Of a stretch of DNA of 64,000 nucleotides, positions 2,925 through 48,200 are shown piece by piece. The stretch comes from Vicinamibacterales bacterium (GTDB lineage: Bacteria; Acidobacteriota; Vicinamibacteria; Vicinamibacterales; UBA8438), in assembly GCA_965202695.1 (NCBI GenBank), contig OZ241843.1, forward strand, positions 826,254-890,253, given 5' to 3'. Numbering within the stretch: the stretch's first letter is position 1; every line of letters begins with the position of its first letter. Position numbers and translations under genes: made by a program. The notes under the pieces are model-generated. The model did no database searches. It worked only from the letters and a program-made list of their open reading frames with translations, and was not told where the DNA came from.

Positions 2925-3797
2925 ATGAGATCGACCCGCGGCGGATCGCCGCTCGTGGTGTTCCTCCTGCTCGGCGCGGGCGTGTTCGCCCTCGACCGCT
3001 GGCTGGACGACGCCGGGGCGGGTCGGGTCGTCACGGTGAGCGACGAGCAGGTCGCGGCCATCCGCGCGCGGTGGGCGGCGCAATGGGGACGGCCGCCGGC
3101 CGGCCCGGAGCTCGAGGCCCTCATCGACGAGGCGGTGCAGGAGGAGGTGCTCTACCGCGAGGCTTTGCGCCTGGGCCTCGACCGCGGCGACCCCATCGTC
3201 CGCCGCCGGCTCGCGCAGAAGATGACGTTCCTGCTGGAGGACCGCGCGGGGGCGCCGGCGGCGGCGCCCGAGGACGTCGAGGCGTACTTCGCGGCCCGCG
3301 CCGAGCGGTACCGCGAACCGCGCCGCACCACGTTCCGGCACGTCTTCCTGAGCCGCGATCGCCGGGCCGACCCCGCGCGCGACGCCGCCGCCCTGCTGCC
3401 CGATGTGCGCGCCGGACGCGGCGGCCGGTGGCGGCGGCTCGGCGACCCGTTCATGCTGCTTCGGGAGTACGCCGGCCGGTCCGACCAGGAGATCGCGGAG
3501 CTGTTCGGCGGGGAGTTCGCGGCGGCGCTCGCCGCGGTGGCCGCGGGCGCGTGGCAGGGGCCGTTCGAGTCGGCGCACGGCGCCCATCTCGTGCAGGTGC
3601 TCGGCCGCACCGAACCCCGGCTGCCCGCCTTCGACGAAGTCCGCGAGCGGGTCGCCGCCGACCTGCGGGAGAACCGGCGGCGCGAGCGGAACCGGGCCGC
3701 GCTGCAGGCGCTGCGCGAACGCTACGAGGTCCGGATGCCCGGACCAGCCGGCTCCGGGCAGGAACCGCAAGACGGCGGCGGGCAGGGACCGCGATAG
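2925..3797 (+). CDS. Parvulin-like peptidyl-prolyl isomerase (PpiC/Rotamase_2-type) with N-terminal membrane anchor
   Basis: ATG at 2925. TM segment SPLVVFLLLGAGVFAL. Rotamase-like C-terminal half (FRHVFLS..., GPFESAHGAHLVQV). The GTG at 2877 is an alternative start. Confidence 0.65.
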   Translation: MRSTRGGSPLVVFLLLGAGVFALDRWLDDAGAGRVVTVSDEQVAAIRARWAAQWGRPPAGPELEALIDEAVQEEVLYREALRLGLDRGDPIVRRRLAQKMTFLLEDRAGAPAAAPEDVEAYFAARAERYREPRRTTFRHVFLSRDRRADPARDAAALLPDVRAGRGGRWRRLGDPFMLLREYAGRSDQEIAELFGGEFAAALAAVAAGAWQGPFESAHGAHLVQVLGRTEPRLPAFDEVRERVAADLRENRRRERNRAALQALRERYEVRMPGPAGSGQEPQDGGGQGPR

Positions 3798-3896: not shown

Positions 3897-5000
3897 ATGG
3901 CCGCCGAACCGCGGCGGGGACGCCGGGCGCCGGACTCGCTGCCGGCGTTGCTGGCCGCGCTGGCGCTGCCGGCGGCGCTCGCGGCCCACGAAGTGCGGCC
4001 CGCCTACCTCGAGCTGACCGAGGTCTCGGCCGGCGTCTTCGACGTGCTCTGGAAGCAGCCGGCGGCGGCGGACGCCGAGCCCGGACTGGTCCGACGCCTG
4101 CCCCTCCGGCCGGCGTTCCCCGCCCGCTGCCGCGAATCCGGGCGGGACGTGCCCGAGGTGACCGCGTCGGCGCTGATCGAGCGCTGGACGATCGACTGCG
4201 GGACCCGCGGGCTGGCCGACGCGCCGATCGAAATCGCGGGCCTGCCCCGCACCCTCACCGACGTCCTGCTGCGCGTGCGCTTCCTCGACGGCGCGTCCGT
4301 CGACCACCTCCTGCGGCCGGAGGCGCCGCGCGCCGAGCCGGCGCCCGCCGCGGGACGCGGGATGGCGGCGCCCGCGTATCTCCGGCTCGGCGTCGAGCAT
4401 CTGCTCTTCGGGTTCGACCACATCCTTTTCGTCGTCGGCCTGACGTTCCTGGTGCGCCGGCCCCGGCAGCTCGTGGCGGTGGTGACGGCGTTCACGGCCG
4501 CGCACAGCGTCACCCTCGCCCTGTCGACGCTCGGCGCGGTGACCCTGCCGCAACGCCCCGTCGAGGCGGCGATCGCGCTGAGCATCCTCTATCTCGCGGT
4601 CGAGCTGGCCGGCGGCGGTCCGGGCGGTCCGGGCGCCGACCGCCGACCGCGCGCGTCCCCGGCGCGGTCGCCGTGGACGATCGCCTTCGGGTTCGGACTG
4701 TTGCACGGGTTCGGCTTCGCGGGGGCGCTGGCCGAGATCGGACTGCCCGAGGAGGCCCGTGCGACGGCCCTGCTGCTCTTCAACGTCGGGGTCGAGATCG
4801 GCCAGCTCGCGGTCGTCGGCGTCCTGCTCGCCCTGCTGTACGGGCTCCGGACCGCGCGGGTCCCCCTGCCCGCGGCCGTCGCGCAGGCGCCGATTTACGT
4901 CATGGGCGCGGTGTCCGCCGGGTGGTTCCTGGAAAGGGTGCTGTCGATCGTGCCGCTGGAATCGCTCGCCGTTCACTTCAGCTTCAACAGCCCGTGGTGA
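3897..5000 (+). CDS. HupE/UreJ-family membrane protein
   Basis: Signal peptide ending AALAAHE. Then GFDHILFVVGL, AFTAAHSVTLALS, FGFGLLHGFGFAGAL and NVGVEIGQL, the hallmark HupE/UreJ TM motifs. The start is uncertain (3801-3897). The stop codon lies inside a repeat arm. Confidence 0.8.
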   Translation: MAAEPRRGRRAPDSLPALLAALALPAALAAHEVRPAYLELTEVSAGVFDVLWKQPAAADAEPGLVRRLPLRPAFPARCRESGRDVPEVTASALIERWTIDCGTRGLADAPIEIAGLPRTLTDVLLRVRFLDGASVDHLLRPEAPRAEPAPAAGRGMAAPAYLRLGVEHLLFGFDHILFVVGLTFLVRRPRQLVAVVTAFTAAHSVTLALSTLGAVTLPQRPVEAAIALSILYLAVELAGGGPGGPGADRRPRASPARSPWTIAFGFGLLHGFGFAGALAEIGLPEEARATALLLFNVGVEIGQLAVVGVLLALLYGLRTARVPLPAAVAQAPIYVMGAVSAGWFLERVLSIVPLESLAVHFSFNSPW

Positions 5001-5045
5001 ACGCCCCGCCGCATCGCGAGCGGCGGCGCATCCCGCCTGCCTGCG
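4988..5045. repeat. Family-1 REP/MITE arm (single arm)
   Basis: cagcccgtggtgaacgccccgccgcatcgcgagcggcggcgcatcccgcctgcctgcg aligns with the arms of the element at 46401-46560. Confidence 0.6.
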
Positions 5046-5204
5046 TCGTTCGTCGGACCGCAAAGCGACCCGCGTAGTCCGGCGCAACTCCGGTTCCCGC
5101 TCTCCAGTGTTCCATCAAGGCCCGGTGCTCGACTTCATGATATGATTTTCTCGCCTTCCGCGGGGCGACGACAGGATACCGTCGAATCGCAGAAAGAGGA
5201 CGGA

Positions 5205-6131
5205 ATGCCTGGTTGCAGGACGGCGCCGCTCGGGGTTGCATCCCTGGACGAAGTCGCGCAAGTATCCCTGTTTTCATCGCTGGACCACTGTTCCGCCGAC
5301 GACGGTCGATTCATTCTGGCTTGCGGAGACAACTTGTCCTTCATGGAGCACCTTTCCAACGGACGGATGAAATTGATCGTCACGTCTCCACCCTACAACA
5401 TCGGCAAGGACTACGAGGCCAGGACTTCCCTGGATGATTACCTTGCCGTGCAGGAGCGCGTAATAAGCGAGTGCGTTCGCGTGCTTCATGCGCAAGGATC
5501 GCTTTGCTGGCAAGTCGGAAACTACGTCGATCATGGAGAAGTAATTCCCCTCGACGCGGTTCTGTACCCCGTCTTTCGCGCGCATGGACTCAAGCTTCGC
5601 AACCGGATCGTCTGGCACTTCGGGCACGGCCTGCACTGCACGAAACGCCTCTCCGGCCGATACGAAACGATCAACTGGTGGACGAAGAGCGACGACTACA
5701 CGTGGAACCTCGACGCCATCCGCGTTCCGTCGAAGTATCCGGGCAAGCGGCATTTCAAGGGGCCGAACGCCGGCAAGCTGTCCGGCAACCCGAAGGGCAA
5801 GAACCCGAGCGACGTATGGGAATTTCCCAACGTCAAGAACAACCATCCCGAGAAGACGATACATCCGTGCCAGTTTCCGGTCGAACTGGTCGAGCGCCTC
5901 GTTCTCTCCATGACCAACGAGGACGAAGCGGTGTTCGATCCGTACATGGGAGTCGGCTCGTCTGCCGTCGCCGCTCTCATGCATGGGCGCATAGCGTACG
6001 GATGCGACCTGGTTCCTGAATACGTGGACGTCGCCCGCGAGCGTGTTCGCCAGCTCCACGCTGGAACTCTCAAGACCCGCCGGATGGGCAAGCCTGTCTA
6101 CGATCCAGCGCTGCCGAACGGTGGACACTGA
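5205..6131 (+). CDS. Beta-class N4-cytosine/N6-adenine DNA methyltransferase (motif IV SPPY precedes motif I)
   Basis: LIVTSPPYNIGKDY (motif IV) is followed C-terminally by FDPYMGVGSSAVAA (motif I, FxGxG-like). An AGAGGA RBS-like sequence precedes the ATG at 5205; the alternative start is 5142. The region has visibly lower G+C than its flanks. Confidence 0.85.
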   Translation: MPGCRTAPLGVASLDEVAQVSLFSSLDHCSADDGRFILACGDNLSFMEHLSNGRMKLIVTSPPYNIGKDYEARTSLDDYLAVQERVISECVRVLHAQGSLCWQVGNYVDHGEVIPLDAVLYPVFRAHGLKLRNRIVWHFGHGLHCTKRLSGRYETINWWTKSDDYTWNLDAIRVPSKYPGKRHFKGPNAGKLSGNPKGKNPSDVWEFPNVKNNHPEKTIHPCQFPVELVERLVLSMTNEDEAVFDPYMGVGSSAVAALMHGRIAYGCDLVPEYVDVARERVRQLHAGTLKTRRMGKPVYDPALPNGGH

Positions 6132-6385
6132 TGCGAATTCTGGCCCGCTATTCACATTTGAATGGAGAAGAGTACCTGCTCGTTCACCGCAGGAAACTAT
6201 GGGACGAAGTGCAGGCGGTGATAGCGGAGGTGAACGCCCTTGCGTGCCGGACGAAGGTTTCCAGAGAAAGAACGATGCGCGGCAGAATGTTGTTTTCTCC
6301 GGGCGACATGAACCAAAGTTCAAGGACGGCCTTCACAGCCCGTGGTGAAAGTCGCCCATTCGGGCATTTCGGGAAATCGACATGA
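6131..6385 (+). pseudogene. Truncated restriction endonuclease remnant (BglII/BstYI-like N-terminal fragment, from memory)
   Basis: Its ATG overlaps the methyltransferase stop (TGATG). RYSHLNGEEYL..KLWDEVQAVI..RMLFSPGDMNQSSRTAF resembles my recollection of the BglII N-terminus (YNHADEILNPQLWKEIEETL...SLIFDPVGTNQYIKDEL). The similarity ends at 6335, where a family-1 repeat terminus begins. It has only 84 codons. Confidence 0.45.
6335..6356. repeat. Family-1 REP/MITE terminus fragment
   Basis: cagcccgtggtgaaagtcgccc matches the conserved terminus CAGCCCGTGGTGRAAC. Confidence 0.45.
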
Positions 6386-6412
6386 CGGCTCACCTGTTCT
6401 ACACTGGTGGAC

Positions 6413-8131
6413 ATGGCAATGGGCACGACACGTGACGACGGGTCGCAGCAGTCGATGTGGGTGTCGGCGGCCGACTTGCCGTCGACCCGCGCGAAGCCCG
6501 CGACCGCCGACGAACGTTCCATACCGGGAAGAAAGACCGCCATGAAATCGATGCCGAATATCCGAACCGCGGTGGAGGCAGTCGGCACCGTCGCGAAATC
6601 GGCGAGAGACCGCACGGTCGAAGCGGCCGGCACCGCCGCCAGATCGACGAGGGACCGCACGGTCGAAGCAGCCGGCGCGGTCGGAACCGCCGCCAGATCG
6701 GCAAGGGACCGCACGGTCGAAGCAGCCGGCGCAGTCGGAACCGCCGTCAGATCGGCGAGGAACCGCACGGTCGAAGCGGCCGGCACCGCCGCCAGATCGA
6801 CGAGGGACCGCACGGTCGAAGCAGCCGGCGCAGTCGGAACCGCCGTCAGATCGGCGAGGGACCGCACGGTCGAAGCGGCCGGCACCGCCGCCAGATCGAC
6901 GAGGGACCGCACGGTCGAAGCAGCCGGCGCAGTCGGAACCGCCGCCAGATCGGCAAGGGACCGCACGGTCGAAGCAGCCGGCGCAGTCGGAACCGCCGCC
7001 AGATCGGCGAGGAACCGCACGGTCGAAGCGGCCGGCACCGCCGCCAGATCGACGAGGGACCGCACGGTCGAAGCAGCCGGCGCAGTCGGAACCGCCGTTA
7101 GATCGACGAGGGACCGCACGGTCGAAGCAGCCGGCGCAGTCGGAACCGCCGTCAGATCGGCAGGGGACCGCACGGTCGAAGCAGCCGGCGCGGTCGGAAC
7201 CGCCGCCAGATCGGCGAGGGACCGCACGGTCGAAGCGGCTGGTGCGGTCCAGGCCGTTCTGTGCGAGGCCACCGCGATACAGCTCGTCAACGACAGCTTG
7301 GCCCAGCTCGTGAAAGGGTCCGCAACGATCTACGACAAGGCGATGGACGCGGAGTACCTGGCGACGCATATCGGTGGCGGCAATCATCGGATGTTCGACG
7401 GTGGCCATACGCTCTGGGGGGCCGCCAAGGCCGTCCACGACGCAGGCGGCACCGCCAGCGAGCAGGCCGCGGGCTACGTGCAAGGTCTGGCGCGTGACGT
7501 GACGACGACGAAAGGTTTGCCGCTGGCGACGTGGAGCAAGGACTCCTACGAATCGGTGTCGAACACGCTCCACCTGCCGAACAACTGGTTCTACGACTTG
7601 AACAGCTTCGATGCATCGGAAGTGATCGGTGCGTCGGTTGGAGCGGTCATGCTGGTGCTGCAGTGGCGAAAACCGGACGCCGACAGATTCGGCAAGACGG
7701 TCGGCGCCTTGGGGATCGCCAGTGTCGTCGGCGCGAATCCTCTGCTGATCATCGCAGCCATCGCCGGTCTCGCTCGTCTGTACCAGACCGCCCGGCGGGA
7801 CGGCGCCGGCGTCGAGGCGTTCGACGGCATGGCGCGCGGTGTGACGGCGGGGGGTGGGGCGATGCTCGTCGCGTCGGGAGTCGCAGCCCTCGGCGGCCCC
7901 GTCGGAGTGATAGTTCTGGCGGGTGTCGCGGCCGGAGTCCTGGGCGGCGTGGCAATGGATCGGGTAAGCGTTGCCGGGATAGTCATGCGCATGACGACGA
8001 TGCTGCCCGATGGCCGCAAACTCCGAGAGACCGCGGGCACAGCCGCTACCCGGCTCACCGAAGCCGCCAGCAAAGTAGGCACCAATATCCTGAGCCCGCG
8101 AAGGCAGATAACCGGGACCACGAATCCCTGA
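6413..8131 (+). CDS. Hypothetical membrane protein with an N-terminal array of 15/18-aa tandem repeats and a Gly-rich TM C-terminus
   Basis: About 14 units of RDRTVEAAG(AVG)TAARS(A/T). The C-terminal half contains hydrophobic Gly-zipper-like segments (VIGASVGAVMLVL, LLIIAAIAGLA, GVIVLAGVAAGVLGGVAM). Start is GTG 6407 or ATG 6413. Confidence 0.55.
   Translation: MAMGTTRDDGSQQSMWVSAADLPSTRAKPATADERSIPGRKTAMKSMPNIRTAVEAVGTVAKSARDRTVEAAGTAARSTRDRTVEAAGAVGTAARSARDRTVEAAGAVGTAVRSARNRTVEAAGTAARSTRDRTVEAAGAVGTAVRSARDRTVEAAGTAARSTRDRTVEAAGAVGTAARSARDRTVEAAGAVGTAARSARNRTVEAAGTAARSTRDRTVEAAGAVGTAVRSTRDRTVEAAGAVGTAVRSAGDRTVEAAGAVGTAARSARDRTVEAAGAVQAVLCEATAIQLVNDSLAQLVKGSATIYDKAMDAEYLATHIGGGNHRMFDGGHTLWGAAKAVHDAGGTASEQAAGYVQGLARDVTTTKGLPLATWSKDSYESVSNTLHLPNNWFYDLNSFDASEVIGASVGAVMLVLQWRKPDADRFGKTVGALGIASVVGANPLLIIAAIAGLARLYQTARRDGAGVEAFDGMARGVTAGGGAMLVASGVAALGGPVGVIVLAGVAAGVLGGVAMDRVSVAGIVMRMTTMLPDGRKLRETAGTAATRLTEAASKVGTNILSPRRQITGTTNP
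6566..7250 (+). repeat. In-frame tandem repeat array, alternating 45-bp and 54-bp units
   Basis: The unit gaccgcacggtcgaagc(a/g)gccggc(gcagtcgga)accgccgccagatcg(gc/ac)gag(g/a)g recurs head-to-tail with no unique spacers. Confidence 0.85.
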
Positions 8132-8145
8132 CCGGAGGGTGGCTG

Positions 8146-8292
8146 ATGGCGAATGACGAAGCGACGATTGGCAGGCTGGTTTCACCACGGGCTGTTCAGG
8201 TGCGAGGATGGAACGAGCGCCGAAGCACGTTCTGGGTAACCGCCGACGAGAAGATCCTGCGCAGCGTCTACCACCTGCCGGAGGTCGAGTAG
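8146..8292 (+). CDS. Possible small ORF (48 aa), hypothetical
   Basis: ATG at 8146 preceded by GGAGGG 7-12 nt upstream. No similarity recognised. Weak call. Confidence 0.2.
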   Translation: MANDEATIGRLVSPRAVQVRGWNERRSTFWVTADEKILRSVYHLPEVE

Positions 8293-8431
8293 AAACAGGC
8301 GATAGAGGAACGCGCGTCGCGGTACGAGCGGGACTTGCTGAACGTGGTGCGGCAGGGGCGCAGCGTTCCGGCAGTTCCTCTTGTCCTCGTCGGCGTTGCT
8401 CCATGATCACGACATCGATTCGAGTCGCCGT

Positions 8432-8845
8432 TCACTTCAGTTTCAGGCAGGGGTAGTCCGGCGTCCGGGGCGCCACGGTGCGATTCGCGCAGTCGGCCAG
8501 CAGGTCGAGCGATTCGAGCACCACCTGGCCGAGAAGGCCCTCGCTCAGCGGCGGTCCGACGACGCAATCGGTGGTCATGAACCGTTCGGCGACGTGAATC
8601 GTCACCGGACCGGCGACCGGGCGTTCCTCTCTCCGTTCGTCGGCATACGTGACGATCACCGTCCGCCGGGTCGTCAGTCCGAGCCGTTCCACGACGTTCT
8701 GGGGCAGTACCAGAGAAACGGCACCGGTGCCGGCGACGAGCTCGACCGTCGTGCGCCGAATCCGCGCTTCGTCGAGGAATCCCCCCTCGTGGAGGGCGCG
8801 GTCCGCCGTGTTTTCGAGCAGGACCTTCGCGTTGATTTCTCCCAT
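8432..8845 (-). CDS. Retropepsin-like (clan AA) aspartic-protease-fold protein, possibly inactive
   Basis: VELVAGTGAVSLVLPQNVVERLGL aligns with the xxDTGAxxxxLPxxxAxxLGL signature of bacterial clan AA proteases. Gly sits where the catalytic Asp is expected. Confidence 0.6.
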   Translation of the reverse strand: MGEINAKVLLENTADRALHEGGFLDEARIRRTTVELVAGTGAVSLVLPQNVVERLGLTTRRTVIVTYADERREERPVAGPVTIHVAERFMTTDCVVGPPLSEGLLGQVVLESLDLLADCANRTVAPRTPDYPCLKLK

Positions 8846-9070: not shown

Positions 9071-9228
9071 GGTGCGCGTCAAAAGCGAGACGTCGCCGCC
9101 GGGGCATCCACGCGGCCGGTTCGCGGCGTCCGTACCCGTTCGGAGGGCCTGGAGATCGACGGCTACACGGTAATCGACGACCCTGACGGGCGCCGACGGG
9201 TGCTCGTCTCGCAAATCTGACGCGCACC
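9071..9228. mobile_element. Family-2 MITE-like element (158 bp) with ~22-bp terminal inverted repeats
   Basis: Left end is GGTGCGCGTCAAAAGCGAGACG (9071-9092). The reverse complement of the right end is GGTGCGCGTCAGATTTGCGAGACG (9205-9228). The core tccaggccctccgaacgggtacggacgccgcga is shared with 54921-55152 in the opposite orientation. Confidence 0.55.
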
Positions 9229-9338
9229 TCCCGCCCGCGCCGCGAGAGTGGAACGGCGAGGACCGCGGTAGTAGGATCGCGGTGGGCGGGCGCCGGAGCC
9301 GCGAGAGGCGGCGGGGGTGCCGGGACCAGGGAGGTGTC

Positions 9339-15710: not shown

Positions 15711-15902
15711 CCGTCACACTCTCCTGTCACCGTTGCCGAGCGGCCTGCCGGCCCGCCGTGGGTTCACCGCGCTGCCGTGGAAGAACTCCGGCGATGTTTC
15801 GCCCGCCGCTTGCAACGTACGGCGAGGGCAGCAGAATACCGCACCCGGCGCGACCAGGCGCATTGACACCCCCTCCTGATTCGCTGATCGTATAATTCGA
15901 CC

Positions 15903-16178
15903 ATGCCGTCCCGCGTGTATGCCGTCCTCCTTGAAGAACCCAGCTCGGAGTCGTTCGAGCGTCTGCGGAAGACCTACGCCGACAATTTCTACGAGATGAC
16001 GCCGACCTCGGGCTTTGTGCGAACCGACGCCCTGACCAGGACGATTGCGGAGAAGGCCGGCATCAAGGACGAACAGGAACAGATAGCCTCCGGCGTGGTC
16101 TTCAGGCTCAACAAGGCGTACTCCGGGTTCGCCGACAGGGCGCTGTGGGAATGGCTGCGACAAGCCGAAGAAGACTGA
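15903..16178 (+). CDS. Hypothetical protein (91 aa)
   Basis: ATG ORF in a locally lower-G+C patch with normal amino-acid composition. No family recognised. Confidence 0.4.
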   Translation: MPSRVYAVLLEEPSSESFERLRKTYADNFYEMTPTSGFVRTDALTRTIAEKAGIKDEQEQIASGVVFRLNKAYSGFADRALWEWLRQAEED

Positions 16179-16394
16179 GGGGGCAGCAGCCAAAAACCGC
16201 GGCTGAAGTCGACCGCGATGAGCGCGAACGGGAAACGACCGATTCCCGGCTGCGCGCCCTGGAGAACCGCATGACGCGCGTGGAGACGATCCTCTGGATC
16301 GTGGGCGCCCTCACCGCCATGCTGTTCGCCGCCGTGACCAGGATGTGCGATATCCCTTGGCCGGCTCCCGGGTCCGATTGACGGCAGCTTGGCC

Positions 16395-16505
16395 CCGTTC
16401 AACCGTCAGGAACGTCCTTCACCACAACGCTCCCGCCGGCGCTGCCGCGGCGCGGAGCCGACCGCTGTCCGTTCAACCGTCGGGAACGTCATTTCACAAC
16501 GCTCC
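16395..16505. repeat. Direct repeat, two ~40-bp copies 74 bp apart
   Basis: ccgttcaaccgtcRggaacgtc(c/a)tt(t)cac(c)acaacgctcc occurs at 16395 and 16469. The second copy contains the MFS stop codon. Confidence 0.6.
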
Positions 16506-27437: not shown

Positions 27438-27495
27438 CCGCCCGTGGTAAAGTCCCCGCTGCATTGCGAGCGGCGATGCGCCCCGCCCGCCTGCC
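27438..27495. repeat. Family-1 REP/MITE arm (single arm, degenerate)
   Basis: ccgcccgtggtaaagtccccgctgcattgcgagcggcgatgcgccccgcccgcctgcc aligns with the arms of 46401-46560. Confidence 0.5.
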
Positions 27496-33787: not shown

Positions 33788-34281
33788 CGTTCTCCATCCT
33801 CGTCCACGAGTTGTTCGGGCGTGCACAGCACCGGGGGATCGACGCCTGCTCCGCGACAGACCGATTCGATCCGCGGCCTGGACATCGCATTCGCAATGTG
33901 ACGGAAGTTCCACGTCACGAGAAACTCCACGCCGTGAACCGCGGCGATGGCGACGTGCGCCGCGTCTTGCGCCGCCCGTTCGGGAACGGCCCCGACACGC
34001 ACCAGACGCCGCGTCAGTTCCAGTGCTTCCGTCGGCGCCGCGAGCGTCGTCAGCGGCGCGAGGGCGGCAAGTCGGGCGCGGGACGCATCGTGATCGCCGA
34101 CGGCCGCTTCCTCCCGAACCAGTTCGGAAATCACGAGGTCGAACCGCTTGGGGGCAGTCTCCCACCAGTCGCGGGTGCTTTGTTGCCGGCCTGCGATCAC
34201 GACGTCGCGCGCCGGCCGCGCCGTCAGGTAGCTGACGATGCTGGTCTCGACATAGACGCGAGGTCTTGCGGATGCCGTCAT
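33784..34281 (-). CDS. PIN-like domain protein (VapC-family toxin candidate)
   Basis: VYVETSIVSYL (first acidic residue), LVISELVREEA, and AAQDAAHVAIAAVHGVEFLVTWNFRHI match a PIN-like layout. Confidence 0.65.
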   Translation of the reverse strand: MTASARPRVYVETSIVSYLTARPARDVVIAGRQQSTRDWWETAPKRFDLVISELVREEAAVGDHDASRARLAALAPLTTLAAPTEALELTRRLVRVGAVPERAAQDAAHVAIAAVHGVEFLVTWNFRHIANAMSRPRIESVCRGAGVDPPVLCTPEQLVDEDGER

Positions 34282-34405
34282 TCGTCCCTCACACCCGGAA
34301 CAGCAGGCGGCTCGTTGCCCACGTCTTCCGGTCAGCCGCTCGGATCGTCGAAGATCGAAACCCGGCCCGTTACGTGCGCACGATGCCGTGCATCCTCGAA
34401 AAGTT

Positions 34406-35602
34406 TCACGCCGCCTCCGGGACCCGGTTGGTCCGATAGGCTGATATCACTTCTTCCTTTATCAGTCCCCTGTGACCCAACCTCTTCGGAGCCAGCATCC
34501 TGTCCCGAATGGGATCTCTGAATCGGTCGAACAGCGCGAAACCCTTCTTTTCGATAATCGCATGCAGGACGTTCCACGTGCAAACTCTCACGCTTCCAAT
34601 CAGATTGTCCCCGCACACGACCACCAGACACGCATTGTCGTCCAGCGTGTCCCTTATCGTGTCGAACGCATTGTCCATGTCGTAGAAGTACCGATGAACG
34701 ACGGCGCACAGGCGGGGATTCCGCGACTTCAAGCTCCTCAACGCCGGCGCCAACGTGAAATCCCTTTCGATGGATTCCCGAGGCACCCCTTCCAGCAACC
34801 TTCCTCGTTCTCTCCCCACGAATCGTTCCTTCACGTCCTTCACCTTGAACGGCAGTACGTCTTCCAGCAGATGCAGCTCGAGCTTGAAGTTCCGAAAATA
34901 GTCCTGCGCGTTGATGTATGGCGGCGACGTGATGACGTGCGAGTGCCGCCCCAGGTCTCTGAAGCTCCGCCGCGGATCGCAAACGTCGGCGCAAGCGAAG
35001 CGGGATCCGACGCTCGCTTCGCGACCTCCCCCGTAGAGCATCGAGAGCTCTTCCAACAGCTTCAGCATGATTCCATACGGATCGAAATGCCGCCCCGCCC
35101 TCGAACGCCGCGCTTGCTGCGAGATGAACGGCTTCGGGCTTCGCTGATCCGCCCTGGAGCACAACCGGACCGCAAGAGCGTAACCGAGAAGAACGGGCCA
35201 ACATTCCGGGGTGCCCCGGAGAGGAACGCTCCTGCTGGCTGCTCTCAAGCGCTCGAATTTTTCGAGGGTGCCCGCCGTAAACCAGTAGCTCTTGCCGATC
35301 CAGTCAACCGGCAACGGTTCGATCGGGCGTTGCGCCTCGGCAATCCACGCCTTGCCGAGCTCCCGGGCGCGATCCAAGTCGAATCCCTGGACCTTCACGC
35401 GGTAGAACAACTCCGAGATCGGGTTCAAGTCGACACCTGAAACCCGAAGTCCGGCTCGGTTGGCCGCGGCGGCTATCGCACCCGATCCGCAAAATGGATC
35501 GAGAACGGAATCCGCCTCGGCCGCGTATCGCCGGATCAGCCGATCCGCCAGCCGGGACACCATCTTGCCCGGGTAGCGGTCCAGTCTCGTGGCCAGTCTC
35601 AT
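34406..35602 (-). CDS. Stand-alone DNA methyltransferase (N6-adenine/N4-cytosine; motif I N-terminal, motif IV SPPY ~230 aa later)
   Basis: ATG at 35602 overlaps the upstream stop (ATGA). VLDPFCGSGAIAAAA is motif I and HVITSPPYINAQDY is motif IV. Low G+C relative to the window. Confidence 0.8.
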   Translation of the reverse strand: MRLATRLDRYPGKMVSRLADRLIRRYAAEADSVLDPFCGSGAIAAAANRAGLRVSGVDLNPISELFYRVKVQGFDLDRARELGKAWIAEAQRPIEPLPVDWIGKSYWFTAGTLEKFERLRAASRSVPLRGTPECWPVLLGYALAVRLCSRADQRSPKPFISQQARRSRAGRHFDPYGIMLKLLEELSMLYGGGREASVGSRFACADVCDPRRSFRDLGRHSHVITSPPYINAQDYFRNFKLELHLLEDVLPFKVKDVKERFVGRERGRLLEGVPRESIERDFTLAPALRSLKSRNPRLCAVVHRYFYDMDNAFDTIRDTLDDNACLVVVCGDNLIGSVRVCTWNVLHAIIEKKGFALFDRFRDPIRDRMLAPKRLGHRGLIKEEVISAYRTNRVPEAA

Positions 35603-36549
35603 TTGCCGCCAGCCGTCTTGAGCACCCAGGTCGGACCGATTCCCGTGGAGAAGAACGCGTGGTTGTGCCGAAGCGGTCCCGCGTAGACGATCGCCGGCGG
35701 GTCGTCCGCCTTCCTGACGTAGTCGTAGATGCCCAACGTCTGCGGCTTGGTGCCCAGCGGACAGATGATCCGCGCGAAGCCACCCCTCCCCGACCCTCCG
35801 AGAACGTCCGTGAGAGTCGCGCTCGCCGCGGCCGGGTCCAGCGCATCGATTTTCCGAACCTCCTTTCTGCCGACCACGGTCAGAAGGTCGTGGTTGAACT
35901 CCTCCGTCCTTCCGGTCCAATCCGGCCTGTACGGTGGATCGGGGACCGCCAACGTCGTCTTCATCGGCTGGATCTGTTCATAGACCGCCATCGCCCGGTC
36001 GCCCTCGTATCCCAGGAACAGTATCAAGTGAACGGGGCGGCTGAGGTCGGGACAGGCGGAAAAGCCGGGAGCCTGTTGGAGAGAGGCGAGTCCAAACGAA
36101 AGCGGAACGTACCTGGAAACCAGATAGTCGCCCGGTTCGCTGTACACGACGTGCAGTCGGTCCCACAGACCGTGGTCGTCGAGCCACCGCAGCATCATCA
36201 GCAGGTGTCGCTTCGTGAAGACGGAAATGTCGATGACGACGGCCCGGCCGGCGGACCGCTCCATGGACCGGCGAAGCTCGTCCATGTTCGCGCGAAGGCT
36301 CGTGACCGCGTCGGCTTCCGTGAACTGAAGAACCGTCAACCGGGCGCCGAGCTTTCGGAACGCGGATTCCATCTGTCGATGGTTCCTTTCGCGCGCGGGG
36401 CTCTCGTCGTCGTAGTGAAACAGGACTACTTCACGCGGCGACCAGGCCTGCGCGCGAGTCAGAAGCCCCTTGCACCGATCCTCATGGCTGGAACAAGTGA
36501 TCAGCACCGCCCCGTCGGGCAGGCATCCAACCGTCAGCGGCCGCCTCAT
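35599..36549 (-). CDS. Uncharacterised 316-aa protein, middle gene of the TIR-NTPase/MTase operon
   Basis: ATGA overlaps at both ends (36546-36549 and 35599-35602). Alternating beta-strand-like hydrophobic runs (VLITCSS, VVLFHYDD, VVIDISVFTK, HLILFLGYEGD, ARIICPLGTKPQ) suggest Rossmann-like alpha/beta folds. No family recognised. Confidence 0.6.
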   Translation of the reverse strand: MRRPLTVGCLPDGAVLITCSSHEDRCKGLLTRAQAWSPREVVLFHYDDESPARERNHRQMESAFRKLGARLTVLQFTEADAVTSLRANMDELRRSMERSAGRAVVIDISVFTKRHLLMMLRWLDDHGLWDRLHVVYSEPGDYLVSRYVPLSFGLASLQQAPGFSACPDLSRPVHLILFLGYEGDRAMAVYEQIQPMKTTLAVPDPPYRPDWTGRTEEFNHDLLTVVGRKEVRKIDALDPAAASATLTDVLGGSGRGGFARIICPLGTKPQTLGIYDYVRKADDPPAIVYAGPLRHNHAFFSTGIGPTWVLKTAGGK

Positions 36550-38819
36550 TCGTCTTCCCCCATCTGGAACAAGGGGCGATTCCGCGACGTGTCGCTGTTG
36601 GAATTCTCCATCGCCTTCTTCAATCTGCGCACCGCGTGCTCCCTCGTGTCGGGTTGAAGCAGGCCCTGCAAGTCGGAGCACCGGACCGTGGTTCTCCAGC
36701 GGAGACGCGGACTGATCTGCAGGACGGGAGCGTAGACCCGGCAGATGTTGAATTCGACCGGCTGTGGATCGGAACCGTGCTTCGGCTTGAACGCCGGGAG
36801 ACCTTCCTTGGTCTGAAAAACCCCTTCCCGTTCGCCGACCGCAAGGACGCGTTTCAACGCCTTCATGGAGTCTTTTGCCAGTACTTCCGGGTCCGCGATC
36901 GTCAAGCGCGCCGCCTCCAGCTCGCTGGTGTGCCTGAGCAGCTTGTGCCGAAGACAGGCGCCAAGATCCAGCAAGAAGTACTTCAATTCTTCGCCGTGCC
37001 GCTCGACGTTGCGACTGAGCGTCGTGAGGTTGTCCTGGGAAACGATATGAACGGCTCTCGACTGCCGATCCGGCGGAAGAACGAGCGAGCCGGCCGGCGG
37101 AGACTCGGCGCCAAAGGTGAGGTGATAGCCGACGCTCAGGAATTCCTGGAAATAGCGGATTACCCCGGATCCCAGAAGCGCGAGCTCCTTGAAACCCGCG
37201 AACCGTTTCTCCTGTTGACGGCCGGACTTCGCGAGAAGGACTCGATAGAGCGCCGCTTGACCCCAGTAAGTTTTCTTCTCCCGTCGTTTTTCGTCCGGCA
37301 GGCTCTCGAATCGTTCAGGCGCGAGCTTGCTGAGCTTGGCCACTTCCGCGAGACACAGGGATGGATCCACCTCCGGGTCACCAAAGCCGGGCAGAAGTTC
37401 GTCCATGTCGAACGGCCGATCGTCGTCGAGCGTGACCATGTTCCTGACGATGTGCCGCAACAGCTCACGATAAGCCTTCTTCTGGTCCGCATCCTGCAGG
37501 TTGTAGACCAGAGGAACCCTCGTATAATCGTGAATCTCCTGCAACTCCTGACCGGTCGTCGTGGCCGGCGTATCTCCGCTCGCGAGTTTCTTGGCAATCT
37601 TGATCGAAAGATGTGGCGGACCGAGCTTGATCAGGCCGTTGACTATCCGTTGCTGGTAAGAAAACAGATTCTCGTATTCGTCGAGCAGAACGACGAACAT
37701 CGACGATTCGAGCGTGGGAACGGCTCTGCGCACCAGGAGCACGACGCGCTTGAATTGCTCCAGGTCGAACGTCGCCATCGGAACGGACGCCGCTTCCTGA
37801 TAGACGAACTTGCGCCGGATGAATTCCGCCAGTCGCTTGTGCGCACTCGACAGCTTTGCTTGCAGTTCCGCGAAGGAAACGATCCTGCCGTCCGTGGAGT
37901 CGAACAACAGCTCGTCCGCCGCTTCGCAAATACGTGGCTCGATATTCCTGCCGTACTCAATCAGATCATGCGTGACGCAGTACTCCAGTTCTGAAAACAG
38001 GCTTTCCGTCATTTGCAGCATCAGTTCCTGGGCTGCAACGTCCGTGAGGATGGCCTCGGCGGCCGAATCCAGGCGTTCGGCATCGAAACGGGCTCCAATG
38101 TTGCAAAGCGCCCCGCGAGTGAGCTTCAGGTAGAATCCGAAACGTCGGGGCGCCGTTTTTTCGGAAGGGCGCCGTTGCAGAAAGTTGCGCGCACGCAGAG
38201 ACAGCAGCAGCATCGACTTGCCGGTGCCCCGGGAGCCTTCGAGAATGCAGGGTGTCATTTCCTCCAGCGCGCCGATCTTGACGGTGTCCGGCGGCGCGAA
38301 CGTCTTGGCGTGAAGCTTCGGCTGTTTCTCGAAGTATTCCGCTCGAAGATGACGGAAAGGATTTCCTGAATCCGGCCTGAACGCCTCGGAGACCAGGGAC
38401 GACGCGGTCTGGTCGCTGAACAGCACCGCGCAGACCTCCTCGACCAGTTTCTTGACAGAATCCCGGTCGTCCGGTTCCAGCCGCCCGTACACCTTGGGTC
38501 CAAGTATCGGCGGCACAGGCGTGTCGTCCAGTCGGACGACGATGCACCGCCCGCCGTCGGCGGCGACCTCGTTCCAGACGGCGGCTTCGACTTCGAGATT
38601 CTGCCATCTTGCGGAACGAGTGTGCTCGGACAAGAGAATGATGATCGCGGCGGCGGCGCGGATCTCCTCGTTCATGAATGCGATGGCGCTGTCGCCAAGG
38701 CCGAGATCCTGCGTGTCGACCGTCGCCTCATGGCCCGCATTGCGGAGATGCTTCACCAGAGCGGTCGCGATGCCCGCGTCGGGGCCGGCGTGGGAAACGA
38801 AAATGCGTCTGATGCCCAT
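36546..38819 (-). CDS. TIR domain fused to a P-loop (ORC/Cdc6- or STAND-like) NTPase, 757 aa
   Basis: N-terminal IFVSHAGPD...IIILLSEHTRSARWQNLEVEAA is a TIR layout with the W-x3-E catalytic context. Walker A GSRGTGKS (aa 195-202), Walker B FVVLLDE (aa 375-381). Long helical C-terminal region. Confidence 0.8.
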   Translation of the reverse strand: MGIRRIFVSHAGPDAGIATALVKHLRNAGHEATVDTQDLGLGDSAIAFMNEEIRAAAAIIILLSEHTRSARWQNLEVEAAVWNEVAADGGRCIVVRLDDTPVPPILGPKVYGRLEPDDRDSVKKLVEEVCAVLFSDQTASSLVSEAFRPDSGNPFRHLRAEYFEKQPKLHAKTFAPPDTVKIGALEEMTPCILEGSRGTGKSMLLLSLRARNFLQRRPSEKTAPRRFGFYLKLTRGALCNIGARFDAERLDSAAEAILTDVAAQELMLQMTESLFSELEYCVTHDLIEYGRNIEPRICEAADELLFDSTDGRIVSFAELQAKLSSAHKRLAEFIRRKFVYQEAASVPMATFDLEQFKRVVLLVRRAVPTLESSMFVVLLDEYENLFSYQQRIVNGLIKLGPPHLSIKIAKKLASGDTPATTTGQELQEIHDYTRVPLVYNLQDADQKKAYRELLRHIVRNMVTLDDDRPFDMDELLPGFGDPEVDPSLCLAEVAKLSKLAPERFESLPDEKRREKKTYWGQAALYRVLLAKSGRQQEKRFAGFKELALLGSGVIRYFQEFLSVGYHLTFGAESPPAGSLVLPPDRQSRAVHIVSQDNLTTLSRNVERHGEELKYFLLDLGACLRHKLLRHTSELEAARLTIADPEVLAKDSMKALKRVLAVGEREGVFQTKEGLPAFKPKHGSDPQPVEFNICRVYAPVLQISPRLRWRTTVRCSDLQGLLQPDTREHAVRRLKKAMENSNSDTSRNRPLFQMGEDE

Positions 38820-38856
38820 TGGAGTTGTTAGAAATTCCCGTCTTGCGTGTTTTCCT

Positions 38857-41800
38857 TCACACCCGGAACACCTTCATCACCTCGTCGCCCAGGTGGTTGA
38901 TCACCTTCACGGCGATGCGGCCGGACGCGGGGCGGGGAAACGGGCGCGACGTGTCGCTGCGCAGGGTGGCCCACGCGTCGGGGTCGATCTCGGCCTTGAG
39001 CGTCGTGCGGAGCGCCTTGTACGGGTCGTTGGCGCCGAGGAAGTAGGCGTGGCGGACGAAGAAGCTCTCGTCGTTGTAGTCGGTGTCGATGAACCAGCAG
39101 GCGATGCCGTCGGGGCCGTCGCTGCGGACCTCGCCGGTGTTGGGGTGGAAGACGTCGACGCCGGCGATCCGGACCCGGATGCGGCCGGCGTCGGGCTTGT
39201 CGCCGCCGCCGGGCCTGTCGCCGCCGCCGGGCCTGTCGCTGGTGCCGGGCCTGTCGCCAGCGCCGGGCGTGTTGCCGGAGCCGGACTTGTCACCGGCGCC
39301 GGGGTCGCCGTGCGAATCGTCACCGTCGGCGGGCAGGATCTCGACGTCCGGCTCGCCGAAGACGACGAACAGGTTGCCCTTGCCGGTGTTCTTCAGCTCG
39401 CCGGCCATGTGCAGGTCGGCGTTCATGCGCGCCTTCAGCACGGGCAGGGCGCCGAGCCTGCTGAAGTCGGTGGTGTGCGGTTCGTAGTTGAAGGCGCAGG
39501 CGATCAGCACGTCGAAGCCGGCGTAGCCCGCTTCGCGCGCGGCGCGCACGAGGTCCTGCCGGCTCACCGTGCCGAACTCGGGGCCGACGAGGATGCCGGC
39601 ACGCCGCTCGGGGCCGTCGTCGTCCTCGCTTTCGACGTAGCGGCCCTGGGCGCAGATCAGGTGACCGGGCCAGGGGTCGAGCGCGGTGAAGCGGATGCGG
39701 TCGGCCTTGCGCGCCTGCTGCACGCCGGCGGTGGCGAGGTGGCCGAGCACCATCGCGGCGAAGTCTTCCGCCGACCCGTAGGCGGGGGCCTGCTCGGCGA
39801 CCCGGTCGATCAGCTCGTCGCGCTCGTCGAGGGCCAGCAGGCGGTGCGGCGACAGGCTTTCGACGGTGAACGGGCCGGCGACGCGCACCTTCTTTCGGTC
39901 GTCGTACGGCTTGTCGTAGAGGTATTCGACGTCGGCGCGCGCGGCGATGGAGGCGTCGATCTCCCGCTGCCGCGCGATGCGCGCCTCCCACCACCGGCGG
40001 TGCGCTTCGGCCGCGGCGGCCGGCCACGGGTCGCGCGGCCCGGCGGGGAGATCGGTCAGCGTGTAGCGGCGGTCGAGCGCGGCGTTGACGGCGCGCAGGG
40101 CGGCGGCGCGGTCGGCGTCGGTCCCGGCTGCTTCCAGACGCTTCCAGGCCGCGGCGGCCGCGGGGGGCCACGGCTCGCCGGCGTCGCGCGGGATCTCCCA
40201 CTCCCGCCACGACCGGCCGAGCGCGGCGTTCAGGTCGGCGCGGAGCGGCTCGAGCGTCTCCTGCCAGCGTTCCCAGATGACGTCGATCTCCGCGTTGTTG
40301 GCGATCGACTTGAGGGTGACGTGCGGCACGCGCTCGTAGACGAAGCCCTGCCGGACGTCGCCGCGCGTAGGCGCCTCGGACGGGGCCGCGCCGGTGATTT
40401 CGGCTTCCTTCCGCTGTCCCTCCGGGCTGTCGGCGAGCAGGTAGTAGGGGTAGCGCGCGCCCATGATGCGGGCGCGGGCGAGCGCGAGGGCGACGCGCGA
40501 CGTGTCGATGGTGATCCAGCGGCGGCCCCACTGCTCGGCGACGTAGGCGGTGGTGCCGGATCCGCAGGTGGGGTCGAGGACCAGGTCGCCGGGGTCGGTC
40601 GCGAGCAGGATGCAACGTTCGATGACCTTATTGCTTGTTTGAACTACATAGGTGAGTCCCGTGCCAAGTTGAACAGATTCCCATCTGTCATTTAGAGGAA
40701 CGACAGCAAAATCATCGATACGCCGGATGTATCTGATCGTTCGTCCACTAGAACGAACGCGTCCAGCAGCAGCAAGTCTCGTCAAACCTGCGAAGTTGGA
40801 TTTGGACGTTCCCTGGCCGGGCATGTATGCTACGCCTTGATAAACAAACTCAAGAAGATCTCCTTCTCCTTTCGGGCGAGCGCTCGTCAACGACGTAAGC
40901 TGACATCGTATAACCGCGCCAGCGGTTTCACCGTTTGATTCGTCATCGAGATCGCTTTTGTTCAATCTGCGAAGAGTGCCGTCTTGCGCAATAGCCATAT
41001 CGTAGCGTTCAAGTGTAGTACTCCCGGGTCTGCGTTCCGCATAAAGCCGGCGGTACTTCACTCGTTCAATATTCCTTGCGAAAACCAAAAGGTAGTCGAT
41101 GGTCTGCGGAACAAGTGTTTGATCCGTTGAACCCGTTTTTTGGAAACCTATTGTACCGACGTAATTGTCTCGTCCGAATACCTCATCCATCAGCGCCCGC
41201 ACCCGGTGGACGTTCTCGTCGCCGATCTGCACGAAGATGCTCCCGCTCTCCGTCAGCAGCTCCCGCGCCACGGTCAGCCGGTCGCGCAGGTAGGTCAGGT
41301 ACGAGTGAATCCCGTCGCGCCACGTGTCGCGGAACGCCTTCACCTGCTCGGGCTCACGGCTGATGTGCTCGGCCTTGCCGTCCTTGACGTCGCGGCTGGT
41401 GGTGGACCACTGGAAGTTGGAGTTGAACCGGATGCCGTAGGGCGGGTCGAGATAGATGCACTGCACCTTGCCGCGCAGCCCCTCGCGCTCGGCCAGCGAC
41501 GCCATCACCTGGAGGCTGTCGCCCAGGATCATCCGGTTCGACCAGTTGGCGTCGTGCCGGTAGAACTCGGTGCGGGCGTCGCCGGCGGGCAGGCCGTTGA
41601 AGTCGGCGAACAGGTCGGGCTGCCCGTCCCCGCCCCCGGCGCCCGCCTGCCGCGCGCGGGTCTCGCGCCGCAGGTCGTCGACGAGGACCTTCGGGTGCAC
41701 CTTCTCCTGGATGAAGAGCGGCGGGGCGGGCACGACGAGGTCGGACCAGTCCGCGAGGTCCTTGCCGCGCCAGACGAGCTGCGGGTCGAGGTCGCGGTTG

Positions 41801-41943: not shown

Positions 41944-41960
41944 GACTGCTGCGCTCTCGT

Positions 41961-42915: not shown

Positions 42916-42945
42916 GCGCTCCGGCGACCATCGGTGTCCGGGGCA

Positions 42946-45224: not shown

Positions 45225-48200
45225 CTATCGGCTCGGGAGGGACGCGAACGTCCGCTCGAAGGCGGCGGAGACGGCGGCGTCGAGGTCGGTCTCCATCGCG
45301 TACGCGGACGTCATCTCCCGGAACGTCCAGCGGCCGAACGCGCCCAGGCGGTTGACGGCCGGGACCCAGTAAGTCTCCATCGCCGTCTTCTTGTCCTTCG
45401 CGTCCTCGCGGCGGTAGCCCTTGACCTCGACCACGAGACGCAGGAGGTCGTCGGGGCCGCGCCCGTCGTCGACGAGCAGGACGAAGTCGGGCAGGTAGCG
45501 CCGGTGCTCGGCGCCGCGGCGGTAGGGGACCTCCAGCCCGAGGTTGTGGTTCTTGACGTACGCCCGCACCCGCGGGTGCGCCTCGGCGACGCGGCAGAAC
45601 TCCGCCTCCCAGTCGCTGTCGCAGACGGCCCAGTCGACGTGGCAGCGCCGGGCGTCGGTTTGCCAGCGGGTCTGCTTCGACGTGGCGAACCGCACGTGCC
45701 GCGTGGACCCCTCGGGGTTGTAGGGGTCGAGCATCGCCTGGATCGGGCGGGTCTCCCGATGCCGCTCGACGATGCCGTCGGTGATGCGCCGGCAGGCGTG
45801 GTCGGCCAGCTCGGCGTACAGCAGTTGCGCCGGGCGCGTGCCCCCTTCGCAGACCAGATGCGCGTCGAGCCACTGCCGGGCGATGCGCTTGAGCTGGCCG
45901 AACAGGTACAGCCGGGGCTCCTGGTTCGGGTCGCGCCACTCGGTCAGCAGCAGATGGCGGGTCAGGTGGTAGAGCAGCGTGGCGCGCCGCACGGCGCCGG
46001 CGCGGACCAGCGTCAGGTCGATCCCCTCGCCGACGATCCCCTCGTTGCGGGTGACGGCGGGGCCGACCAGCTCGGGGGTGAGCACCAGGGTGGAGTCGTC
46101 TTCGAAGCGGGCCGTCAGCCGGTCGTCGGGGAGCTCCACGCGGTAGCCCTGGACGCGCGGGAAGCGGATTTCGCACGCGTCGCGGTCCGGCGTCACCGCC
46201 CGCACCATGACCGTCTCGCGCGGCGGCAGGGGCGGGGCCACCACCGGCTTGGCGGTGAAGTCGAACGGGATGCCGAGCACGTCGGCGTACTCCACGTCGA
46301 ACAGGCCGGTCTCGCCGTTGACTTCGTACGACTGCCGGCGTAGCGCGCGGCCGACGATCTGTTCGCAGAGAAGCTGCGTGCCGAACGCCCGCACGCCCAG
46401 CAGCCCGTGGTGGAACCCCCGCGTCGCACCGAGAGCGGCGATGCGCCCGCCTGACAAGGCGTGAGAAGGGCGCATATTGGGCATATTCAACCGCCGAACA
46501 ACGCAGTCAGGCGGGATGCAGCGCCGCTCGAATGCAGCGGGGCGTTTCACCACGGGCTGCCAGGACGTGGGTGACGGTGCGCGCGTCCCAGCCCTCGCTG
46601 AGCATCGAGACCGACACCACGCAGCGGGTCCGCCCGCCCAGGCGGCCCTCGACGCCGACGGTGTTGACCACCTCGCGCAGCAGGTCTTCGTCGGTGAGCC
46701 GGTCGGCCTGCCGCCGGTCGCCGGTGCGCGCGACGATCTCGCGCCGGAAGCGTTCGATCTCGTCGGCCGCCGCGGCGCGGAACCCCCGGTCGAGCGCCTC
46801 GCCCGAGTCGAGCTGCTCGCTGTCGATCAGCAGCGTCCGGGGTCGGGGGCAGGGGCGGCCGTGCTCGTCGAAGTTGCGGAAGAGCGGCAGGCGGCCCTGC
46901 TCCAGGCTGGTCGAGCCGTCCTCGCGCCGGCGGTGGAACCCGGAGACGTAGTCGTAGACCAGCTTCGACGTGGCGGTGTTGTTGCAAACGATGATGAAGC
47001 AGGGGGGACGCGGATGCCCGCCTCCCGCCACGCGTCGAAGGTCCGCGCGTAGTGGCCGTACAGCGCCTCGAGGGCGGTCACCAGCTTCGTCGGCAGGCGC
47101 AGCGGATCGGCCGCGCCCGCCCCGCGGCCCTTCTTCGGCATCTGCCTGCCGACGTGCTTCCACAGCTCGCGGAACTGGGGCATCTCGGCGCCGGGGACGT
47201 TGTCGGCCACCGGCACGCGCGGCAGCTTGACGATGCCGCACTCGATGGCGTCGAGCAGCGAGAAGTCGCTCGCGGTCCACGGGAACAGCGTCCCCTCGGC
47301 ATAGCCCGACCCGCGCAGGAAGAACGGCGTCGCCGACAGGTCGACGACCCGCTGCAGGCCGAGCCGGCGCCGCACCGCTTCGAGGCCCGACATCCAGATG
47401 CGCGCGGCCTCGCGGTTCTTCTGCGCCTCCTGCCACTCGTCGCCCCGCAGCGCGCCCTCGACCGACTCGGCCGGCCTCTCGCGGTAGCAGTGGTGGGCTT
47501 CGTCGTTGAGCACCCAGATCCGCTTCAGGCCCATCAGCTCGGGCAGGACCCGCTGCAGCATCCGGCCCTCGGTCTCCCGCGTGCGCAGCGGGGCGCCCTG
47601 GCCCTGGAGCAGGGCGCGGCCGACGGCGGAGACGGCCAGCGTCTCGCGCCGCTGGAACGCGTGGTAGTTGGTGACGACGATCTTCGCCCGCTCGAGGTCG
47701 CGGAGCATGTCGGGCGGGACCAGCTCGCGGCTCGCGTAGTAGCTGTCGGGGTCGTGGGGCTGGAGCACGCGCAGGCGTTCGCGGATGGTCACGCCGGGCG
47801 CGACCACCAGGAACCCCCGCGTGAAGCGCGGGCTGGCCGGGCGCCGGACCGCGTTGACGGTCTGCCACGCGATGAGCAGGGCCATGACGGTGGTCTTGCC
47901 GGCGCCGGTCGCGAGCTTCAGGGCCACCCGGTCCAGGGCGGCTGACGGCTCCGCCGCCGCCCCGGCGTTCGCGTTCGCCAGGTGCTCGAGGTAGCCGCGT
48001 CCCTCCCGGCCGATCTTCGGCGCGACCTCGGTCAGCCAGATCACCGTCTCGGCCGCCTCGACCTGGCAGAAGAACGGGCGGACGCCGCCGAAGGCGTGGC
48101 GCCGCCAGTGCCGCAGCAGGCGCGCGGTTTCGGGCGTGACCCGCCACGCGCTCTCCGGCGCCGCCCGCCAGCCGTCGACGGCGCGCCGCAGGCCGTTGAC

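Follow-up and report, generated by a model that had tools for sequence, protein, structure and literature searches.

We analysed a 64,000-nt stretch of the genome of an uncultured Vicinamibacterales bacterium (Acidobacteriota; assembly GCA_965202695.1, contig OZ241843.1, positions 826,254 to 890,253 of the forward strand), referred to below as the window. Near its left end lies a type II restriction-modification (R-M) locus in which a DNA methyltransferase gene (M) is followed, in the same orientation, by the remains of a restriction endonuclease gene (R). The features of the locus are collected in Table 1. The M protein matched the Pfam family PF01555 (N6_N4_Mtase) with an E value of 5.7e-48 and the MTase_II/type II methyltransferase models of PADLOC with an E value of 2.8e-77. 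Its motif IV (TSPPYN) comes before its motif I (VFDPYMGVGSS), which is the beta-class order, and this agrees with an earlier reading of the sequence (the original prediction) that had recognized a beta-class enzyme from an SPPY and a later FxGxG-like motif. The TGATG overlap between the M stop and the R start described there is likewise present (cacTGATGcga, 6129-6133). It opens an 84-codon open reading frame (ORF) that spans 6131-6385, running past the break in R and into a repeat.

Table 1. Features of the R-M locus, the repeat family and the sister allele L004 (window positions unless stated otherwise).
Feature	Position	Strand	Basis or remark
Partial/single repeat units	1048-1267, 27438-27494		
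Left copy of island-flanking direct repeat, GCCGTTCACTTCAGYTTCA	4968..4986	+	Encodes HupE C-terminus; two copies in window vs 0 expected
Half unit of REP/MITE family in HupE 3' end, at CTTCA/GG	4988..5056	+	87% identity to MITE 91-159; supplies HupE stop codon
Additional in-frame ATG for M	5142		Upstream of ORF 5205-6131
Beta-class DNA methyltransferase gene (M), 308 aa, SPPY motif IV, intact, now solitary	5205..6131	+	PF01555, PADLOC, L002 alignment
R pseudogene (BstYI-type), 5' part	6131..6335	+	-1 frameshift in A-run 6315-6317; 1sdo match, L002/L004 alignment
Left target-site duplication TTCA	6332..6335	.	Empty site ggccTTCAggtg in L002 and L004
Putative mobile insertion cassette, 1,859 bp, no transposase	6336..8194	+	Termini CAGCCCGTGGTGAAA at 6336-6350 and 8180-8194; 14-mer matches, empty sites
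Promoter-like site TCGACA-17-TACACT, cassette left end, upstream of cargo	6377..6405	+	Consensus match only
Cargo gene, 529 aa from ATG 6542 (longest ORF from GTG 6407), GGGNHRMFDGGH core, hydrophobic C-terminal helices	6542..8131	+	Homologues, P0001, TRF
Right target-site duplication TTCA	8195..8198	.	Empty-site comparison
R pseudogene, 3' part, original stop TGA 8404-8406	8199..8406	+	Translation, spliced match, L002/L004 alignment
Right copy of island-flanking direct repeat	8427..8460	+	Overlaps 3' end of aspartic protease gene (-)
Clan AA aspartic protease gene, 137 aa, right border of variable locus	8432..8845	-	Pfam Asp_protease_2/gag-asp_proteas; 100% amino-acid identity in L002
Complete 159-bp MITE, inverted termini, flanks CCAG/CCAG	46401..46559	.	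Repeat comparison
Single 36-bp repeat unit (terminus + hairpin)	58537-58571		Just past stop codon, ~30 bp upstream of ATP-synthase-beta-like ORF
IS630-like element (HTH_33 + DDE_3, ends TTAAGGCGGTCG..., TA duplication) in L004 M	L004 6308-7409		

The 84-codon ORF is a clear endonuclease homologue. In a search of solved structures, its residues 1-73 aligned with residues 1-73 of R.BstYI (PDB 1sdo) with an E value of 1.8e-17, and Pfam Endonuc-BglII was matched weakly (E 0.043). The predicted resemblance to BglII/BstYI-type endonucleases therefore held, but not its extent: true amino-acid homology ends near codon 62 rather than at about residue 68, and residues 63-84 are out of frame and repeat-encoded. 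The C-terminal part of the nuclease, thought to be missing, is present a short distance downstream, though disrupted by a nonsense codon and by two deletions. Just past an inverted copy of the repeat terminus (8181-8194), a single reading frame gives VQVRGWNERRSTFWVTADEKILRSVYHLPEVE, a stop, KQAIEERASRYERDLLNVVRQGRSVPAVPLVLVGVAP and a second stop. Splicing the two parts (6131-6334 and 8197-8405) yielded a product that aligns with BstYI residues 1-107, without a gap over the junction, and again over residues 148-203, with an E value of 2.8e-39; the second stretch is strongest at the C-terminus. A database search with the spliced R returned 1,331 homologues, and the best 120 of these are 186-203 aa long and all carry PF09195, with no 84-aa protein family among them. 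Neither of the two outcomes that the original prediction had named as refuting it was obtained.

Two sister alleles, L002 and L004, allowed the damage to be read base by base. Their flanking genes are 98-99% identical to those of the window at the nucleotide level and the three therefore belong to the same species. The order in L002 is rotamase, HupE, a cassette of the cyclic oligonucleotide-based antiphage signaling system (CBASS), M, R, aspartic protease (minus strand) and DUF3604, and both M and R are intact. The L002 nuclease (P0121) is the closest homologue of the spliced R, with 90% identity at the same locus; it is 203 aa long, the length of BstYI, and carries PF09195. L004 has the same locus without CBASS. 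Against both alleles, the R gene of the window is one A short in the run at 6315-6317, which shifts the frame by -1, and it has lost 49 bp between 8310 and 8311 and 149 bp between 8322 and 8323; in addition, CAG has become TAG at 8290-8292, where L002 has CAG. The two deletions take out a segment that reads ...DFVKDRVAVEVQFGK... in L002 and includes DFVKD...EVQ, which by alignment with BstYI is the PD-(D/E)XK catalytic core. A full-length BglII/BstYI nuclease with a D...E-x-Q core is thus encoded by the L002 allele and not by the window. Because of the frameshift, the nonsense codon and the two deletions removing the predicted core, we regard the R gene of the window as an irreversibly dead pseudogene, with five lesions in all when the insertion described below is counted. 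The locus resembles the BstYI system in its adjacent, co-oriented N6_N4 methyltransferase gene and in the alignment of the spliced R; it differs from BstYI, which recognizes RGATCY, in that its nuclease gene is a pseudogene.

DNA identity to the intact L002 homologue stops exactly at 6335 and resumes at 8323. What begins at 6336 is an insert of 1,859 bp whose ends are perfect 15-bp inverted repeats, CAGCCCGTGGTGAAA at the left and its exact reverse complement at the right. The 14-mer CAGCCCGTGGTGAA begins at 6336 on the plus strand, and its inverted copy occupies 8181-8194. At the same point L002 and L004 both have an empty site, gacggccTTCAggtgcgaggg. Where the window reads ggccTTCA, then CAGCCC...GGGCTG (1,859 bp), then TTCAggtg, the two alleles read ggccTTCAggtg; checked against both empty sites, the insert is flanked by a 4-bp duplication of TTCA. 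The inverted termini, the 4-bp target duplication and the empty sites show a simple insertion, and the frame across the junction fits a simple target duplication because of the 1-nt deletion at 6315-6317. The original prediction had placed the break correctly, at 6335 with a repeat terminus from 6336, but had attributed it to deletion or rearrangement of the nuclease gene at a repeat; it is instead the left junction of an insertion.

No transposase or recombinase domain was found in the insert with Pfam, NCBIfam, PADLOC or PHROGs, and it is polymorphic, being missing from both sister alleles. Based on its inverted termini, the lack of a transposase, a passenger gene and ends in common with a family of miniature inverted-repeat transposable elements (MITEs), we classify it as a putative mobile insertion cassette (MIC), a concept defined previously (PMC3129680, PMC5444012). 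Known MICs include MIC231 of Bacillus cereus and the qnrS2 cassette of Aeromonas (PMC5444012). Similar to these, the window cassette has inverted repeats of the insertion sequence (IS) type and a target duplication, carries a passenger gene but no transposase, and ends in the same sequences as MITEs elsewhere in its genome. In contrast to them, its duplication is 4 bp, its passenger is an uncharacterized conserved membrane-type protein rather than a resistance or metabolic gene, and a single copy has been observed. A 48-codon ORF (8147-8292) starts within the right end of the cassette, at an ATG that follows GGAGGG, and continues in frame through the terminal repeat into the R remnant; it is probably meaningless.

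Taken together, these analyses make it highly probable that the locus is a BglII/BstYI-family type II R-M operon (M then R), situated at a variable defence locus that hupE and the aspartic protease gene border, in which R was split by a 1,859-bp non-autonomous cassette and then killed by further lesions, leaving M solitary. The cassette entered codon 69-70 of R at the target CTTCA/GG, duplicating TTCA, presumably after mobilization in trans by a DDE-type transposase that is encoded elsewhere in the genome and recognizes CAGCCCGTGGTGAAA. R then decayed further through the -1 frameshift, the nonsense codon and the two deletions. In an addictive R-M pair, nuclease loss before methyltransferase loss is the expected order; R would thus have been lost here before any loss of M, as addiction logic requires. 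Within the window, the M ORF is intact and the cognate nuclease at the locus is non-functional, as had been predicted.

Several observations weigh against parts of this interpretation. Nine of the 18 codon differences between M and its L002 counterpart are non-synonymous (the other nine are synonymous), so purifying selection on M is not demonstrated, and avoidance of RGATCY in the window is unclear, with 49 sites observed and 64 expected. No further copy of the cassette came to light, and an exact 25-mer from its left junction had no match in the metagenomes of the Joint Genome Institute (JGI); its movement as a unit therefore rests on one insertion. A related 160-bp MITE on the JGI metagenome contig L085, the sole match to the MITE end, has imperfect flanks (CTAG/CTCG). 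Finally, no transposase with the cassette termini was seen in the window or the compared loci, and mobilization in trans is for this reason only inferred. No partner transposase was found in the neighborhoods of the repeat copies; the second low-G+C region (34-46 kb) has defence genes instead. The IS630-like element of L004 was considered as a partner and rejected, having unrelated termini and a TA duplication.

The state of M deserves separate attention. At the amino-acid level it is 97% identical to the M of L002, without a frameshift or stop across 308 codons. The L004 copy of M is broken by a -1 frameshift and by the IS630-like insertion; the L004 copy of R shows only a late CAG>TAG change. 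None of the lesions in the window allele overlaps one in L004, and the two have in common the repeat half-unit in HupE and the absence of CBASS; their common ancestor was therefore intact at R and M, and the system was inactivated twice independently. One could suppose that the whole system of the window is likewise dead, M being intact only for lack of time and no longer expressed or active. The equal numbers of synonymous and non-synonymous changes would fit this, as would the clustering of seven of the nine non-synonymous changes within the N-terminal 77 residues, the destruction of M in L004 and the lack of a sigma-70-like promoter upstream of M in a scan of 4900-8600, in which the site at the left end of the cassette (6377-6405) was the sole match. 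Against it, motifs IV and I are untouched and no codon of the 308 is disrupted, while the neighboring R gathered five lesions over the same period. We consider this explanation unlikely, albeit the most serious of the alternatives.

If instead M has outlived its nuclease, as we favor, it is presumably still active. It would then methylate an RGATCY-like site, probably as N4-methylcytosine given its SPPY motif, which we take to point to N4-cytosine methylation. Among PF09195 nucleases the site cut is AGATCT or RGATCY, and the type of methylation with which they are paired differs (PMC10734518). An attempt to read the specificity from site avoidance was abandoned as too weak (RGATCY as above; AGATCT, 7 observed and 14.3 expected). 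The strongest palindrome avoidance in the window concerns a different sequence, the PvuII-type site CAGCTG, with 0 observed across the whole 64 kb and 18.3 expected under a maximal-order Markov model. This hints at a CAGCTG-specific restriction system in the lineage. Similar to orphan methyltransferases that derive from decayed R-M systems, M is intact beside a degraded cognate R; the locus differs from them in that a sister strain, L004, has lost M too, and the solitary state may therefore be transient.

The ends of the cassette belong to a family of short repeats. At up to two mismatches the 14-mer occurs 11 times in the window, against 0.56 occurrences expected by chance. As in MITEs and in repetitive extragenic palindromic (REP) elements or their paired form (REPINs), one terminus of 14-15 nt recurs here, in an element of 159 bp with inverted repeats as well as in single units that bear a hairpin and follow gene ends; the element in R differs from all of these in being 1.86 kb long and coding. 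Placement of the single unit at 58537-58571 resembles that of REP elements. The half unit in the HupE 3' end is shared with L004 and not with L002, and both insertions at this locus, in R and in HupE, lie at CTTCA/GG. At the right end of the cassette the sequence shared with MITE-family elements is 15-17 nt long, and at the left end about 30 nt. A literature search for the terminus sequence gave no relevant match.

These shared ends bear on a two-step origin, in which a MITE entered R first and the cargo was captured later between its ends, or in which recombination between REP copies brought the segment in, so that the 1.86-kb unit never transposed as a cassette. Such a history could account for the single copy, for the shortened MITE hairpin that the roughly 30 nt at the left end preserve, and for the closest homologue of the cargo protein (P0001, on contig L001), whose gene is without termini: with up to four mismatches allowed, no terminus copy was found in about 500 bp upstream or 370 bp downstream of it. 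It fits poorly with the lack of any MITE interior beyond the shared end sequences and with perfect termini plus a target duplication, which suit one recent event; nor would recombination of dispersed repeat copies produce a 4-bp target duplication. We judge the two-step origin improbable.

The REP-like appearance of the family raises the question of whether the REP-associated tyrosine transposase (RAYT), an HUH enzyme, has moved both the repeats and the cassette. Units of 36-70 bp standing alone just after gene ends (for example 58537-58571 and 4988-5056), a GC-rich hairpin beside the 14-mer in each unit, and one element in the form of a 159-bp inverted doublet would all be in keeping with this. 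IS200/IS605-type and RAYT mechanisms, however, leave no target duplications. The 4-bp duplications at the cassette (TTCA, verified by empty sites) and at the MITE (CCAG) set the family apart from REP/REPIN elements moved by a RAYT and, for that reason, favor a transposase of the DDE type; nor was a RAYT gene seen. A RAYT-driven origin is accordingly very doubtful. Hardly credible at all is the original proposal that the C-terminal two-thirds of R were lost by a deletion or rearrangement ending at a repeat copy, since, although the 84-codon ORF does stop shortly past the terminus at 6336, the rest of R continues the BstYI alignment without a gap, in one frame at 8199-8406, and the intervening material, which has inverted termini and a TTCA duplication at its borders, is absent from two sister alleles.

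We were also curious about the gene that the putative cassette carries. Its probable start, ATG 6542, follows GGAAGAAAG and is the ATG also used by P0001, which is 94% identical and whose gene lies downstream of a P-type ATPase gene. The family comprises at least 139 hypothetical proteins, with lengths of about 300-630 aa among the best 120 of the 139, and has an invariant core (...YDKAMD...GG..HR.FDGGH...), a WFYDLNSYD segment and hydrophobic C-terminal helices. No Pfam, NCBIfam, PADLOC or PHROGs family covers this conserved core, and none of the 139 homologues has a Pfam family there. The variable N-terminal region of some homologues shows weak likeness to synuclein, apolipophorin-III or phasin repeats, and two homologues contain a PIN domain. 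In the window, the N-terminal region is a tandem repeat with a 54-nt period and 12.1 copies (6623-7249, Tandem Repeats Finder, TRF), built of alternating 18- and 15-aa units; P0001 has 2 units (L001 10040-10150). The comparison indicates a large and recent change in repeat length between the two genes. A profile search against PDB sequences gave no credible match, and an AlphaFold2 model built from 38 homologues reached a pLDDT of 59.7 and a pTM of 0.42. The cargo was also considered as a novel transposase and rejected, given that it has no catalytic motifs, that the P0001 gene is without termini and that the family has membrane-type features. One can speculate that with this cassette a first member has been seen of an active family of non-autonomous, cargo-carrying transposons in Vicinamibacterales, which the transposase behind the REP-like/MITE repeats would drive. 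The passenger, a widespread uncharacterized protein that combines the GGGNHRMFDGGH core with a hydrophobic C-terminus and with an amphipathic repeat grown here from 2 units to about 12, would then have a defence or stress function and would have been selected on replacing a nuclease inside a defence island. We would give this scenario little chance of being correct.

The block that contains M, R and the cassette is a lineage-specific island. In about 40 species-representative Vicinamibacterales genomes the rotamase, HupE and DUF3604 genes are adjacent, with HupE directly beside DUF3604. M, R and the cargo gene are all missing from this position, and hardly any copy of the 14-mer occurs in the same genomes. 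In L002, copies of a 34-bp direct repeat (GCCGTTCACTTCAGCTTCAGGCAGGGGTAGTCCG) stand on either side of the block, at 3497-3530 and 8634-8667. In the window, 19 bp of the left copy remain, interrupted by the repeat half-unit, and the right copy is full. The absence of the block from the other genomes, together with the direct repeats of L002, supports horizontal acquisition, in line with the original prediction. The G+C content, too, is lower than in the flanks as had been noted, at 0.57-0.60 for 5.0-6.5 kb and 0.63-0.73 for 6.5-8.5 kb, against 0.72-0.79. The 34-bp repeat codes for the C-terminus of HupE on one strand and that of the aspartic protease on the other, and it has the appearance of an attachment or target site that was duplicated; the repeat-flanked defence block has no integrase.

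Other differences and features were seen at and around the locus. The CBASS cassette of L002 (3555-7051) encodes a SMODS cyclase, a bacterial HORMA protein, an AAA ATPase and a 270-aa protein and lies between HupE and M; in the window this interval is only about 80 bp long (5105-5183), as it is in L004. A 739-bp segment of the window (15759-16497) between amidase and major facilitator superfamily (MFS) genes is missing from L002; it has two small ORFs, a direct repeat (gttcaaccgtc.ggaacgtc...) and lower G+C. A second low-G+C region (34000-46600; 0.58-0.68) contains defence-type genes, namely a methyltransferase fragment (34409-35920, minus strand), a TIR and ORC/CDC6-like STAND protein (36549-38819, minus), a 1,160-aa protein with an N6_N4 methyltransferase domain (38860-42339, minus), a nucleotidyltransferase and HEPN protein (44138-45088), an ORF with an RE_endonuc domain (45228-46553, minus) and a MazE-like ORF. 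Finally, about 118 bp upstream of the DUF3604 gene (9121-9238) recur inverted, with about 85% identity, at 54911-55089, next to a tRNA gene (54672-54759, minus); the two copies may represent a promoter in common or a further repeat family.

In conclusion, all components of the locus are of known kinds: a BstYI-type R-M system, a solitary methyltransferase, a MITE family and a mobile insertion cassette. What is new, in a lineage of uncultured acidobacteria, is this repeat family together with this cassette and its uncharacterized passenger. In annotation, a pseudogene fragment is the appropriate label for the 84-aa ORF, and a mobile element that for 6336-8194. The two points that follow also serve annotation and leave current understanding as it is, the splitting of R by a cassette and its subsequent decay being an ordinary route of death for R-M systems. 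First, a single uncultured species provides a clean natural record of R-M decay, with an intact system in L002, M destroyed and R stopped in L004, and R hit five times with M intact in the window. Second, the short REP-like repeats of this genome belong to a transposable family whose insertions duplicate 4 bp of the target and whose members can carry a gene.

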